A DNA stretch of 64,000 bases. Source: a virus (taxonomy: Duplodnaviria > Heunggongvirae > Uroviricota > Caudoviricetes). Positions 53,001-59,000 of this stretch are shown here, piece by piece. A program made the position numbers. The stretch lies in IMG/VR virus record IMGVR_UViG_2537562172_000006, one strand, 5' to 3'. How positions within the stretch are numbered: the stretch's first letter is position 1; every line of letters starts with the position of its first letter.

Positions 53001-56000
53001 GGCATCCTTGGATCGGTGAACTTATACACGCCTCTACCCAGTCTTTTTATTGTCGCTCCAAAATCCTTTTTAATTAAGCGTCCTGTATAGTTACTCATAC
53101 TTTGGTTGTTATATCTCTCTCCAGTATCTTGATATATCTGGTTTATCCATTCTTTAACGCCAAACTCCTCATTTTTAAACTTTGACGCTGAATATAGAAT
53201 TTTTTTGTACACATCTGTTTTAGATGAACGAACAGCATCCTCATACTCTCTTCTTAGCCTACCTTCAGCATTCTCAACTGATTTTTCAATTGATTTATGG
53301 AAGATTTCAGAATTAATAACTTTGCTAGAATCAACAATGGCAGCCTCAGCAGCCTCCTTGCAAAGGAGGTGAGTAAAATATGGAAAGCCATTGCTTATAT
53401 CAACTATTTGATTTTTAATTTCATCGTCAAACCTTAGTCCTAATCCTTTTTCTCCCAGACTGATTATTTCTAACAGATGCTTTTCATCAACCCCTCCCAG
53501 ACAAACCTCATGCAGGCATCTGTTAACAGATTCATGCCCTGCCGTAAGGCTTTTACCATCCTTAGAAATTCCCACAAGCAATACTTTCAATTTCGAATTA
53601 AAATCGCTCAACTGCTTTATAAACTCTGCAACAGCTTTCTTTATATCGTCTTCTAATACATCAAACTCATCTATAACGAGAACCCCCTGAATTATTCCAA
53701 TAGTCGCTGCTGCCTTTCGAGGAGTTATTTCATCTCGTTCTATAGTTATTTTTTCTTCATAACCCACGTTACCAGTAAAGAAACTAAAAAACTTTGCAGA
53801 TAAGCCTGCCTTTATTACTTTCTCTTCCTTATACTTTTCCGGGTTTTGTGAGATAAATATTGCACATTCAGAGACGATATCTTTAAATTTAGTGTTAGTA
53901 TCACACTTCACATTAAAATACTCACCTAAAAGTACGTTGTATTGCCTGCCACCAATAACTGTAGCATTAGCTAATGAGCTCTTTCCGATTCCTCTATCAC
54001 CATATATCATACAATGCCTACCAGGAACCGTTAAATTATCTAAAATACTTCTCACCTCAGTATCTCTCCCCTTTAAATACTCAGGATTAGATATAGGAGT
54101 TGAAGGAGTATAATATTTATTCACATCATCTTTTTTTGCAAATTCTTGTGCATACTCTGCAAAAATATTCACATACACCTCCTTTTCATTAAAAATGATT
54201 AACCTGCCACTTTCTGTTTTGCAACCGTTACAAACTTCTTACGAGACTAAATATTTACGCATATCAAAGGAATGTTACGCGCGCTCATATCCATCCCACG
54301 CTATCCCATTTTACATGAACATAGGTAAAAACCCGCAACATCAGCATCAACAAAAAGCCTTACCCGTAGGCTTAATGTTTGGCTTGGCTGTAGCCTTACC
54401 GAACGCGCCGCTCACCGTCGTGGCCTGTCCGGTTTCTTCCACTGATACGGCCTCACATCATCATGCTGGTGGCGTTCCTGTTGCAGAACAACGGAAACAG
54501 GCGCTGAACACCTGTTAATTTTGCCTGCTGGTGGTCTGATTCCGGCAATGCTGCGGATCATCTCCAGCATATCGGCTTCGGTGATGGTCATGATTTACAC
54601 CTTAGGAAATCTTAGGGGGCTGGTTGACACTTTCCGGCTTAAGACCTTAATAAATCTTAATATCGCGGGTTGACACACTTGACACTTTTCGGGAAAAACC
54701 TTAACAAAACTTAACCTCCCCTGGCATTTCTAAGCATGGCAACTTGACACTTTTCGCGATTTTTTCGGCTTTTTGACGTGGTAAATCTGGCGCAAAGCCA
54801 GTAACGGCGGGGTTTACAGCGAGGTTGACACTTTTTCGCGTTCAGAGTGTAAAGTGTCAACCCGGCAGACGGCCTGACTTGACACTTTTCGCGAATTTTA
54901 CGGTCATTAATGGGATGATTTTTCCCACTCAGCCAGGGCGTTTAGTCCGGCTTCACTCCAGTTATCCAGCTCATCGGGACAATCACCTGCAACATAGCAG
55001 AGCTCACAACGCAGCATACGAATTGCCAGCCTGGCATTTTCCCGAAAATCATACTGCTCAAAGTAATATTGCCCAGCATAATCCTCAAGGCAGATAGCAC
55101 CATCATCAAGAAATTGCACTTCACAGCATAATTCCCCGGCTGCATCCTGCACACGCTGCTGTATGTCATCGTCCGTTACTGGTGCAGGGATTTTACCGTC
55201 TCTGGCCTTAACTGCTTTCCAGAACTCGCCCCACGTCATTTCCAGCGTTCTTTCTGGCCACATTTCAGAAACGGTGTCTTTCCCCTGTGCTGGTGGGCTG
55301 TTCCGCTGCTCTGTCGCCTCCACATCAATTTTTTTGCCAGACATGATCACTTCGCCTTTCTCGATCCAGTCGTAAACTGTCTGGCGGCTTACGCCTTTGT
55401 GTTTAGCATATTCTGCTTTACTCATTAGCATATTGCCCTCTCATGAAATAACGTTGTGTGCTGTCTGCCCCTGTGACTTCAGCTTGTTTTCAGCATATGC
55501 CTCGAACACCGTCACCCACGCATCACCATCGGCAGTAAGATACGCTCCGATGTGGCGAACGGACTTAACCAGAAATTTTCCGGTGAACGTGGTCGAGTTT
55601 TTGGAGATAACACTGGGCGCTGTAGTATTAGTCATGAGGATCGACGATGCTCCTGAAAACATTCCCTGAGGCAGTTCGATCACATCACTACACCGTATAT
55701 CTCCCCGCAACGGGCATTTAAAACTGACGGTAAAAGGCTTTATCCATGTTGGTTGGCCTATTAATTCATAAGGTTCAATTTTCTTTATTTTCCCCAGTTC
55801 CAGTGATGAATTATCATAAAGACGAATGCGATCTGGTAACATAATAATGCCTACCCCGCTATATCCTTTCTGACGAATAATCGCTTTCGATAAACTTCGC
55901 ACAGCCATAGCCAGCGAACCTATATCAAGGTAAACCAGTGGAATATCTTCAGGTAAAACCAGGTTATCACTGACCGAGGATTCAATAATTTTATCTGGAT

Positions 56001-59000
56001 ACGCCTGTTTCAAAACACGCGATAACACGTCTCCTAATTTTTCTCCCTGAAATCCAGTACCGCTAAATCTCACAGGAGAACCATCTTCTTTTTTTCTATA
56101 AACGGGGTTAACAACCAGATTCAACGTCTGGTTGGTGCCAATCCAGTTAGCATAAGCCATATAGACTTCACCATAGATAATCTCTCCCTGTTGATCTGGA
56201 TTAGCCAAAGGAAGTCCAGAAGCAAAGCCAGCAGTTAAGCTAACAATGCATCCGTTGAGATTTACACTTTGCTGTAACATCTCAATAGGTAAGCCATAAA
56301 TTGTCAGCATCGTTCCGGAACCAACAACATCCAGGCCGGTTACTTCAAAGTCAAATTCAACATGCAACCCACATCCTGGTGTTTCACTGGTATCAAAAGG
56401 CCCAATGGGGTTCCCATTGCTATCCACTGGCGGCTTACCAGTTTTAGGGTTAATAATTTCCAGTCGGTAATAACGCATTAGTAAACCTCGAACTGATTAG
56501 TACTTTCACGAAAAATGAGCTTTCCCGGAGCAAATGGAAGTGCCAGATTGATGTCGTAACCATCAGGGGAAGCAATCAGAGGCGTGTATACAATGACCTC
56601 ACCAGAACTGTTTTTCAGTTCCAGATAATAGCGATTCGCATACAGATTGAACGGAACACGGGCAAATAAAATTTCCCCTCCCATCCTGAATTTAAATTTG
56701 AAAGGTTTTTCCCCATCAGGTTTGAATGGTATAAAAGTATTCATACTCCAGACTCCTGCACAATTTGATTCTTGATACCTGACAATGATTGCCACTAAAT
56801 TATTTAGTGGCATGATTCACTCACTCTGTTTTTTCCAGTTGAGCCAGCCGCCCGGATATTTCTTCCAGTTTTTCCAGGGCTGGCTTGCAGGCCGCATCAA
56901 TAACTTCACGGACCATTCCGGCGAGCTGTTCTTCTTCTGTCGGCGTTGTTACTTCCACACCTGATGGTTTCCCGCCCTTATCCCATACGCCCAACGGTAC
57001 GAGCGCAACGTGATCGATAAGAAATGGCGTACCCTCAATGAAAAAATTGTCCTCGCCCATTACATCAGGAACTTCTGCCCCACCGGACGCACCACAAAAC
57101 ACAACCGACGGGCTGGTGGATACCTCCCCCCGTGCTTTCTGGATGTAATCGATGATTTCCTGCCCGTAAATCCGGCATACGCCCCACACCTCGTCACCGC
57201 GAATATACGGCAACATAACGGTGCCAATAATGCGCGACCGTTCGCCCACGTCTTCAAGGGTTTTGCTTTCGGGATGGTCGATAATGACGGGTACTCCGGC
57301 GCAACGTTCCAGGAACTGCGGATTGAGATAAGTTTGCGGTGAACGCCAGACAAATTCTTTTTCTTCGGCGCGGTAGGCCATTCCGGTTCCTGTGATACGC
57401 AGGTTAACCAGCCACATGTTGGAAAACTGATAAGGCGACGGTAGCTGTCCGTCCCGAATCTGCTTCGCCGCCTCAATTTCTGTTAAAAGCATAATGTTAT
57501 CCGGTTATAAGCAATAAGCCCCGCCAAATCCGGCAGGGCTGAAATCAGCACGTTTTTCATGCCCCCGAGAGGCTTGCAGTGTTAATTTTTACCAGGCGAC
57601 GGGGAGGAATTTTGAAAGCACTAAGCCAGTTATTCGGATCCCCCTGATATTCAGTAATCCGGCGTCCGGCTTCATCCATTCTTACGGTTTTACGCAAATA
57701 GCCCGGCGTATTTTCCACGGCCCACTGAACACTGTCTTTTGCAGCCTGGTAAATCTGATCTTCCAGCACCGCCAGCGTTGCAGAATCTGAAACGGAACGA
57801 ATATCCACATCACTGAATTTTTTAGCCAGCTTCTGTGCACCAATTAATGCACGCTTGCGGTAATCCATCGACTTTTCACCAGCAAACGGGGCTGGAGCGC
57901 GACGGCCCATACAACTGTATGCTGAATCCGCTTTGGCCTGGGCTTCTGCCAGTGAGGATTCATCTTCGACTGACGCGACGATGTTTTGATTCGCGTTGTC
58001 CTCATCTGCTTTTGTGAAATCCTGTGCGGGGATCGCATTCAGAATTTCGATAATCTCCTGCGGAGTGCTGCCCTGCGACTCTGACAGAGCGTTAACCACC
58101 TCCATCAGTTTTAATCGCAAATCTTCTTTGCTTGCTGGCATTGTTACCACCTCTCTTTTTTCACCAAAAAATCACGACCATCAGGCCGGACGTTCTACGG
58201 GATAAAGCGCCCGCTGCATTAAACGCCGGGCGACCTCATGAATGCTCGGAGCAATCCCCAGCGGAGAATTGCGGCGTTCCTCGTCCTGGATGCGCTGTAA
58301 TGCTTCAATCTGATCACGAGCGAGTAAAACGGGTTTCACGCTGGCTTTTCTCATAGTCATATCTCCTGAACAAAACAATGATTATGATTGCACAAACTGA
58401 AATGACGATCTACATCATTGCAATTTATGAAACAATAACGCATGATGATCGCGTTCTTCCCATTGACTTCAATCACCTGAAAAACAAAGCCCGCAACACT
58501 TCTGGCTGCGGGCTTTTTACTGGCACAAAAAAGCCGGGAAAAATCCCGGCCTCCGTCACTGACTGCAATTTTTCGATCCAGGGTATTTCCTGAATGCCTT
58601 ACCATTGGGCTGATGTAATCCCATCCCGGCATGTGCCCGGCTGATGGTTTCGCGCATCTCCCCGAAATTATCCTGCCTTGCTGGTGGGCGTGCTGCCTTG
58701 CGGATACATTCCGCGCGACGTTTTGCCGCCTGTTCCCGTGCCTTGTCATCATTCGCCAGCATGATGACCTCAGCCCACCGCGCCGCCGCTCTCCGGTACA
58801 GACCACGCGCTTCCAGTGCTTCCGCTTTGCTGTCGTGAATCATGCGCCTGTTTTCTCCTTTGCTACCCGGCGCTGACGTTTGCGCTTCTCATTCAGCGCC
58901 ACCAGCCGCGTTTCTGCGTCCTGTTGTTCCTGTGGTGTCACCTCGCCGCACGGCTGGCCTTTCAGGTCGTAGCGTACCCCACCAGCCATTAAGGCGCGGT

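Follow-up and report, generated by a model that had tools for sequence, protein, structure and literature searches.

Why would a small mobile island keep its own copies of assembly genes that the phage beside it also encodes? The question is raised by a 64,000-nucleotide (nt) stretch of DNA, called the window here, from a tailed-virus (Caudoviricetes) record of IMG/VR (IMGVR_UViG_2537562172_000006). The window holds a prophage and an island, and the late operon of the island contains diverged copies of four morphogenesis genes of that prophage. The element is a satellite of about 11-14 kb, of the Gram-negative phage-inducible chromosomal island (PICI) type or helper-embedded type, and not prophage debris. 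The reading that we favour, and hold to be somewhat more likely than not, takes the region as the late operon of a PICI-type satellite with a Rac-SA53-like myovirus prophage as its helper. A short helper-derived scaffold and a protease would redirect the helper capsid to small heads, the last gene of the operon would redirect packaging, and optional tail-core cassettes would be built into tails.

Four gene pairs of ancient divergence

The genes compared are the following.

55441..56478, minus strand: satellite copy of the helper baseplate hub, 345 amino acids (aa); phrog_196 baseplate hub, 8e-37
56478..56744, minus strand: satellite copy of the helper 88-aa hub-adjacent tail protein; phrog_8737
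56821..57492, minus strand: satellite head-maturation protease, 223 aa; DUF2213 domain and C-terminal helix; PF09979, phrog_6216/530
57557..58141, minus strand: satellite scaffold-like protein, 194 aa; matches the C-terminal part of phrog_6216
7620..8893, minus strand: helper originals of the baseplate hub (7620-8627) and the 88-aa protein (8627-8893), downstream of the tape-measure and 222-aa genes
18136..19428, minus strand: helper protease-scaffold fusion, 430 aa; 42-nt repeat linker at 18598-18712

An earlier note on this DNA had paired these genes by reading the sequence, and protein alignment bears out all four pairs, with 54-78% amino acid identity. The island hub aligned with its 335-aa prophage partner over 331 aa without gaps (73% identity), and the two 88-aa proteins aligned over 87 aa (78%). 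The 223-aa protease matched residues 1-228 of the 430-aa prophage protein (54%, E=9e-86), while the 194-aa scaffold-like protein matched residues 280-423 of the same protein (59%, E=8e-58). All four island genes and their prophage partners lie on the minus strand.

At the DNA level, the four pairs were only 65-72% identical. Their synonymous sites were saturated, with a proportion of synonymous differences (pS) of 0.64-0.75 and a proportion of nonsynonymous differences (pN) of 0.15-0.28. Recent duplication and an assembly artefact are therefore ruled out, as the earlier note had argued. The codon-level comparison that it had proposed gave ratios of nonsynonymous to synonymous substitution rates (dN/dS) of 0.01-0.23 between island and helper copies. 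Between the window and the satellite copy L026, dN/dS was 0.06-0.15 for the scaffold, protease, 88-aa and hub genes, with dS of about 0.3-0.45. The divergence of the four pairs is ancient and under purifying selection.

A mechanical list of open reading frames (ORFs) gives longer starts for these genes. The starts used here are those of the earlier note; they have ribosome-binding sites (for example, GAGAGGTGG for the ATG at 58141) and are the same in RefSeq for identical islands. Beyond the four pairs, homology between island and prophage was limited to an AntA-like gene (36% identity) and one weak match of 55 aa. Outside the four genes there was no DNA homology that could represent shared pac or cos DNA.

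A re-engineered scaffold-protease core

In PHROGs, phrog_6216 takes in both head genes of the island as well as the helper 430-aa protein, and there are weaker matches to head-maturation proteases; the Pfam assignment is DUF2213. In the helper protein the two parts are joined by a linker made of 2.7 copies of a 42-nt unit (18598-18712), encoding EAEEKAKADEAAAK. The earlier note had counted three copies; the repeat itself is there. The linker (64 aa) is not present in the island scaffold and protease genes. As that note had described, the two halves are separate genes in the island, and on the coding strand the scaffold-like gene comes before the protease gene.

Its description of this arrangement as "split and swapped" holds for the arrangement itself, but the arrangement is old, is fixed across six genera and may not have come from a simple split. 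The helper gene has an internal methionine codon, Met189, with AGGTG 8 nt upstream; Met189 is conserved in close helper types only. The N-terminus of the satellite scaffold gave a marginal alignment with the helper helix that follows the protease near Met189 (shuffle p ~0.01-0.05). We offer it only as a suggestion that the satellite un-nested an internally initiated scaffold.

The C-terminal ~135 aa of the scaffold-like protein are 59-64% identical to those of the helper and form its most conserved part, while the N-terminal 45 aa are satellite-specific and conserved among satellites. Within satellites, dN/dS of the scaffold gene was 0.11-0.24. In Pseudomonas phage Pa193, the DUF2213-family protein gp24 was seen attached to the inner side of the capsid vertices and is taken as a putative scaffold (PMC11456595). 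By analogy with Pa193 gp24, the conserved C-terminal domain may be the capsid-binding part.

For the 223-aa protein, the AlphaFold model had a mean predicted local distance difference test (pLDDT) score of 84.6, and nearly all its top Foldseek matches were herpesvirus assemblins and T4 gp21. In 32 homologues, His73, Glu101 and Ser125-Thr126-Ser127 were invariant and Asp160-His161 nearly so. The protein is thus predicted, from weakly scoring matches, to have an assemblin-like capsid-protease fold with conserved, putatively catalytic His and Ser residues. Together with the phrog_196 match of the hub, this supports the view that the paired proteins are assembly or virion proteins. A comparison of the helper 430-aa protein with PDB sequences gave no informative match.

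Annotations of this protein family vary. Some scaffold copies (such as L002 11032-11610) are labelled "NUDIX hydrolase" in RefSeq and some protease copies "TolA", and several distant DUF2213 homologues of 340-385 aa have a precomputed NUDIX Pfam match.

Between the scaffold and protease genes lies one more element.

57517..57540, minus strand: GC-rich hairpin with a U-rich tail, candidate attenuator; terminator-like, 10-bp stem

The order scaffold, hairpin, protease was present in every family member examined. An equivalent hairpin was found in six satellites of different genera, with differing sequences, by individual folds. Covariation support was weak because the five-sequence alignment was in poor register, so the claim of a conserved hairpin rests on the individual folds. 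The hairpin suggests partial termination, by which more scaffold than protease would be made. This would explain why the scaffold gene is placed first.

Swappable tail-core cassettes

The hub pair differs from the scaffold-protease core in its distribution. The earlier note had treated the four genes as one block. That stands for the scaffold and protease, which are the conserved core, but not for the hub pair, which is one of several swappable cassettes, and a rare one. The slot between the protease gene and the gene of the 174-aa last protein of the operon varies among family members as follows.

No cassette: 12 of the 18 IMG/VR copies; L001; L004
88-aa and hub pair: window; L005; L011; L026
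205-aa tail chaperone and 679-aa tape measure: L002; L003; L012-L014; L027

The chaperone of the third type is 90% identical to that of the helper at 11741-12370, and the tape measure is 73.5% identical to that at 9562-11679. Every cassette corresponds to one uninterrupted block of helper genes, and its joints lie within a few nt of the flanking genes. In the window, the upstream edge of the block has left a trace.

56745..56792, minus strand: non-coding remnant of the 3' end of the helper upstream 222-aa tail gene, by blastn homology

The blastn homology between 55486-56792 and 7635-8947 passes the 88-aa gene by 54 nt and enters the 3' end of the helper 222-aa gene. This extension looks like a recombination scar of block capture.

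After capture, the pair appears to have been kept in step with its neighbours. For the hub, dN/dS was 0.09 against the helper and 0.15 against the L026 satellite copy (dS 0.38, dN 0.057); for the 88-aa protein, it was 0.11 against the helper and 0.14 within satellites. The divergence of the hub between the window and L026 is in step with that of the flanking core genes, and both copies retain the satellite-specific length of 345 aa. This type of hub is rare: it was found in 3 of 5426 complete E. coli genomes and forms one cluster at 90%, with 87 contigs. Its nearest other relative is a Cronobacter protein of helper length (335 aa) with 80% identity.

Other satellites carry further tail-core genes. 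The Enterobacter satellites L009 and L010 have tape-measure-like and hub genes upstream of the scaffold gene. The Klebsiella pneumoniae satellite L038 has a block (6501-9695) of Dit-like, Pam3_gp18-like, hub, 116-aa and Apex spike genes, the first three of which are 73%, 68% and 46% identical to the copies of the embedding helper. Tail-core paralogues in several satellites make this a recurrent feature and not an accident of the window. In Pa193, the tape measure touches the tail hub and tip with its C-terminus (PMC11456595).

The last gene of the late operon

54907..55431, minus strand: final gene of the late operon, 174 aa; MerR/Xis/BldC-like winged helix-turn-helix (HTH) at the N-terminus

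The 174-aa protein matched HTH_17 and phrog_57 (small terminase) at its N-terminus only. Its AlphaFold model (pLDDT 88.9) matched Pukovnik Xis and BldC in Foldseek over the first ~50 aa only, and the C-terminal domain had no convincing structural match in that search. In Klebsiella aerogenes, Pantoea and L010, the same slot holds two small-terminase genes (Sf6_terminase family, phrog_370), the same protein kinds as the two small-terminase-like genes of the helper. The 174-aa protein may plausibly serve in packaging or in the recognition of late DNA.

A 226-aa E. coli protein annotated as AntA/AntB (P0268) is 82% identical to half of the 174-aa protein, which suggests domain shuffling between the regulatory (Bro) zone and the late zone.

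Identity and layout of the satellite

The other features of the island and its boundary are listed here.

52354..52379, strand not assigned: attachment (att) core AATTAACTACACCATTAACTACACCG, island end on the smrA side; exact 26-bp direct repeat flanking L001, L002 and L004
52973..54178, minus strand: variable cargo, nSTAND1/AAA ATPase, candidate defence gene; Pfam nSTAND1 2e-09, weak PADLOC PDC-S59
54412..54591, minus strand: conserved 59-aa ORF that follows the late operon; found at 88-95% identity in most of the 18 IMG/VR copies
58181..58354, minus strand: 57-aa gene that opens the late operon; 93-100% identity among E. coli islands
58486..58516, minus strand: strong intrinsic terminator; 12-bp stem with 7 GC pairs, T run
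58556-58843, minus strand: PerC-family activator; Pfam PerC 2e-32
58840-59382, minus strand: ProQ/FinO-family protein; Pfam ProQ 6e-24
59755-61560, minus strand: replication primase-helicase, D5_N/DUF5906/Pox_D5, by Pfam and PHROG
61557-61847, minus strand: DUF4222 protein of the replication module, by Pfam and PHROG
62552-62725, plus strand: divergent Arc-like/YlcI small gene in the regulatory (Bro) zone; weak Pfam Arc match
63200-64000, minus strand: AntA/AntB-family gene, cut by the window end; Pfam AntA 2.5e-23

The host is E. coli, and the window island is flanked by smrA and abgR. Elements of 11.4 kb (L001), 13.2 kb (L002) and 12.4 kb (L004) are delimited by the 26-bp repeat. For the window island, the second att copy lies beyond the window end and the length of ~13.5 kb is an estimate.

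Complete copies have, in order, an integrase gene, an HTH (AlpA-like) gene, AntA/AntB, Icd-like, DUF4222, primase, ProQ/FinO, PerC, 57-aa, scaffold, protease, optional cassette, 174-aa HTH, 59-aa ORF and variable cargo, the last of these not in all copies. The integrase and the co-oriented AlpA/HTH_17 gene fall outside the window and were seen in L001, L002 and L004 at the abgR-smrA site and in L003 and L005 elsewhere; in distant relatives, PF05930/PF12728 genes adjoin int. The replication module is replaced by DUF927 or RepA types in other copies. The family thus has int and AlpA genes, its own primase, a length of ~10-15 kb with att sites and a partial set of late genes, as PICIs and helper-embedded satellites do.

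The earlier note had found no capsid, portal or large-terminase gene in the part of the satellite that lies in the window, and this extends to complete copies elsewhere, which have no capsid, portal, large-terminase (TerL) or lysis genes. Its assignment of a P4-like replicon did not hold. The 15 island ORFs scanned had no Pfam or PHROG match to Psu, Sid or Delta, and 52100-64000 had no Rfam match to C4/isrK RNA at the gathering threshold or at E <= 1. The window primase has the D5_N/DUF5906/Pox_D5 part only, while Klebsiella relatives have Zn_Ribbon_Prim, Toprim_3 and D5. From the lack of these proteins and this RNA, and from a helper that is not P2-like, we concluded that the island is not P4-like and has a PICI layout instead.

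The terminator at 58486-58516 stands between the PerC/replication operon and the late operon; weak leader-like Rfam matches occur there, and relatives have a Q-like antiterminator gene near the late operon. The 57-aa protein has no Pfam match and is 69-73% identical in the Klebsiella aerogenes and Pantoea islands. The 59-aa ORF is hypothetical in RefSeq and has no Pfam match. In other copies the cargo slot (window 52523-54360) holds DUF4747 with a hypothetical partner gene, SieB, or nothing (~120 bp). In this the terminal slot resembles the defence hotspots that P4-like satellites and PICIs are known to have. PADLOC gave no matches for the four morphogenesis proteins.

The Arc-like/YlcI gene could be the satellite repressor. 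A 331-aa ORF at 62212-63207 is probably spurious; homologous islands annotate ~0.8-1 kb there as non-coding save for the Arc-like/YlcI gene.

Distribution of the family

The island was carried by 34 of 5426 complete E. coli genomes, in 50 copies and with up to four per genome. The same late module stands behind different integrases and at different chromosomal sites. With several sites, multiple copies and different integrases, the island is mobile. A short protease form (221-229 aa), down to 55% identity, was found in Citrobacter, Salmonella, Enterobacter, Pantoea and Klebsiella aerogenes, and it lay in an island of the same architecture at all six loci with gene context examined. The family occurs in at least six enterobacterial genera.

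In Klebsiella pneumoniae, the related satellites L038 and L039 have a P4-alpha-type primase (Zn-ribbon, Toprim, D5) and lie within an E217-like prophage. A truncated capsid gene adjoins L039.

The helper prophage

At 95% identity, the prophage, which lies at ttcA, matches both Escherichia phage Rac-SA53 and a phage deposited under the name Actinobacillus phage pPE4. Its head module has, in order, two small-terminase-like genes, TerL, portal, Mu-F-like, protease-scaffold, 205-aa protein and capsid genes; its tail module has sheath, tube, chaperone, lytic-transglycosylase tape measure, 222-aa, 88-aa and hub genes. The virion module encodes a contractile tail and is related to that of Pbunavirus phages (E217, Pa193).

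The co-occurrence of island and prophages of this type, which the earlier note had proposed as a test, was found in complete E. coli genomes. The helper phage type was present in 23 of the 34 island carriers against 61 of the 5392 non-carriers (odds ratio ~180, Fisher p = 2e-35, with genomes counted as independent).

A second line of evidence comes from Pantoea agglomerans. In L007 (1-12446), the satellite is inserted in the helper TerL gene, and TerL picks up again with residues 332-442 at 12114-12446. The genes after it, for portal, Mu-F-like, protease-scaffold and capsid proteins, are 68-84% identical to those of the window, and this helper has a sheath gene. L007 is a helper-embedded satellite with a contractile-tail helper.

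Some further observations were made on the prophage. The capsid ORF of the window (15955-17511, minus strand) is one 518-aa frame joining PHROG families 6671 and 6737, while in Pantoea a 342-aa gene of its own encodes the first part and is followed by a distinct gene of 156 aa. The 518-aa frame could be a genuine fusion, a read-through or a sequencing difference. Prophage RNAs at 44394-44572, 30953-31128 and 5468-5552 correspond to the RalA antitoxin small RNA (sRNA; with ralR), a sok-type antitoxin RNA and an sRNA-Xcc1 match. FnrS, an sRNA of the host, is at 48869-48986.

Proposed role of the captured genes and alternative explanations

In the reading that we favour, the strong terminator upstream would gate the late operon. 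During the late phase of the helper, the satellite would make the 57-aa protein and a short scaffold with the C-terminal domain of the helper but without the long repeat linker; the attenuator-like hairpin would then allow smaller amounts of a stand-alone maturation protease. The short scaffold might compete with or replace the helper 430-aa protease-scaffold on the helper capsid protein. Small procapsids fitting one satellite genome would result, and the satellite protease would then clear the scaffold from them. The 174-aa winged-HTH protein may redirect packaging or late DNA recognition. The hub pair is optional and may have been captured as a block from a helper-type phage; its products probably replace those of the helper in the tail core. 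Satellite particles could then have a different hub or tape-measure set, perhaps for DNA delivery or tail supply.

A bolder form of this proposal, which we regard as rather unlikely, is that the satellite customises the helper tail core as well as the head. Its own hub, 88-aa protein, tape measure and chaperone would enter the tails of transducing particles, and the head would be shrunk by the un-nested helper-derived scaffold and protease, at a ratio set by the conserved attenuator. If so, satellite particles would differ from helper virions in their DNA-delivery machinery and could bypass injection blocks or superinfection exclusion in helper lysogens, or use other entry factors.

The sizes of the satellite (11.4-13.5 kb) and helper (47.5-52.3 kb) speak for small heads: under assumed triangulation (T) numbers, they fit a change from T=7 to T=3 or from T=9 to T=4, giving 13-15.5 kb. 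Several observations weigh against small heads and redirected tails. Purifying selection fits an interference or backup role too. The Foldseek scores of the protease are weak though consistent (E from 4.5e-3; template modelling scores of 0.3-0.47). Searches of PDB sequences, by phmmer and with a 35-sequence profile, did not connect the 174-aa protein with Rpp or small terminases. Circular or terminally redundant ends were seen in none of the 18 IMG/VR contigs. The co-occurrence counts are not corrected for clonality, and many carriers are Belgian pig enterotoxigenic E. coli (ETEC) isolates. The helper count in carriers is a difference between megablast and blastn place counts, and 12 of the 23 were confirmed by name through a hub search. 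Moreover, the helper type is missing from 11 of the 34 island genomes, and the three complete genomes that carry the hub cassette are all among these 11. The lifestyle does not depend on tail substitution, since 12 of the 18 surveyed islands are without a tail cassette.

The paralogues might act by interference alone, as poison subunits that mis-assemble helper heads or tails and lower helper yield with no satellite-specific particles, to the benefit of the host population and of the satellite. Satellites commonly block helpers via morphogenesis proteins, such as Rpp in E. coli PICIs (PMC6739421) and Tai (PMC11364771), and the copies here are 22-46% diverged in protein sequence from those of the resident helper, in islands that also carry defence-type cargo. 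However, by poisoning tails a satellite would stop its own transfer too. The invariant His and Ser of the protease are retained, the most conserved part of the scaffold is its C-terminal domain, and the cassettes are complete and contiguous, with intact lengths and dN/dS of ~0.15 between satellites, so that we consider interference alone improbable. The genes might also be backup or dosage copies, captured by recombination and supplying extra or replacement helper functions (for example, when a satellite interrupts the helper late operon) with particle architecture unchanged. Tommasini et al. report that as many as 18 successive late genes of a helper were captured and propose that they are backup copies (bioRxiv 10.1101/2022.07.18.500453); in the present family, the Pantoea and Klebsiella relatives lie within late genes of their helpers, and the cassettes are contiguous helper blocks with a capture scar. 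This explanation is doubtful in our view: the scaffold-protease pair is a re-engineered two-gene version, without linker, in reversed order, with a hairpin and fixed across six genera, and the window island is not embedded in a helper and interrupts nothing. In addition, the captured genes are 46-78% identical to those of the resident helper and not near-identical.

The presence of phage structural genes beside a primase and an integrase could also be explained if the region were the remnant of a second degraded prophage of the same family. The element has precise att bounds at 11-13 kb, though, and islands of the same architecture, free of other structural debris, recur at many sites and in many genomes and genera. 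A single genome can hold several copies, and the ORFs are intact, with dN/dS well below 1 between copies. On these grounds we reject this explanation as very improbable, and here the earlier note had been right to call the island a satellite.

Whichever role applies, E. coli with an inducible Rac-SA53-like prophage offers a satellite-helper pair in a genetically tractable host. The satellite morphogenesis genes are clear homologues of helper genes, so two questions become directly testable: whether a linker-deleted scaffold from the helper's own protease-scaffold can set capsid size, and why satellites repeatedly acquire and maintain diverged tail-core genes such as hub and tape measure. We know of no functional study of the acquisition of tail-core genes by satellites. 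The swappable cassettes and the terminal defence-cargo slot are a natural experiment in modular satellite evolution and a possible chassis for engineered transducing particles.

Comparison with known satellites

Like P4 with its helper P2, the island is enterobacterial, of similar size and equipped with a D5-type helicase-primase, and shrinkage of the helper capsid is proposed for it. P4 is ~11.6 kb and P2 ~33 kb, and Sid is an external scaffold unrelated to helper proteins. Unlike P4, the island has no Sid, Psu, Delta or CI RNA matches, and its helper is not P2-like.

A further comparison is with CpmA and CpmB of the Staphylococcus aureus pathogenicity islands (SaPIs). In both cases, a small internal scaffold would compete through a capsid-binding C-terminus shared with the helper scaffold; here this is proposed from the genes. 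What CpmB is known to have in common with the helper scaffold is a short motif at its C-terminus. In the present family, the whole C-terminal domain of ~135 aa is homologous (59%), the satellite has its own protease, and small capsids are only proposed. By sequence, the island protein resembles the CpmB type in having the helper C-terminus on a shorter, linker-free body; capsid binding would follow by analogy.

Satellites with helper-derived head genes are already known. In SaPIbov5, Ccm is a capsid-protein homologue that redirects capsid size or shape (PMC8569155, PMC5052747). Like Ccm, the proteins described here include true homologues of a helper head protein; unlike Ccm, they are a scaffold, a protease and a tail hub. 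A full set of head and packaging genes is encoded by capsid-forming PICIs (cf-PICIs), which depend on the helper for tails alone (bioRxiv 10.1101/2022.09.08.507074). Like the island, they are PICIs with phage-derived head-assembly genes, but the present family has no capsid, portal or large-terminase gene, and some of its members encode tail-core parts.

The nearest relatives are the Gram-negative PICIs and helper-embedded satellites, in which a late zone of captured helper genes has been described (bioRxiv 10.1101/2022.07.18.500453; Fillol-Salom et al. 2018, PMC6092414). The earlier note knew of no described satellite type of this kind. That was too strong, as helper late-gene capture had already been published for lambdoid helpers (bioRxiv 10.1101/2022.07.18.500453). 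In the searchable literature, of which coverage is incomplete, we found no description of this family, of its re-engineered scaffold-protease core or of its hub and tape-measure cassettes. The text of the preprint by Tommasini, Mageeney and Williams does not contain "baseplate", "protease", "scaffold" or "DUF2213" and does not describe tail-core cassettes. The family shares with these satellites the four zones (int with AlpA/HTH_17, Bro/AntA, primase and late), the size of 10-15 kb, the dynamic late and cargo zones and the capture of contiguous helper blocks, and some relatives are embedded in helper late genes (TerL in Pantoea, the capsid gene in Klebsiella). It differs from the satellites of Tommasini et al. 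in two respects: their helpers are lambdoid while the helper here has a contractile tail, and its core is not a capsid gene but a re-engineered pair of scaffold and protease.

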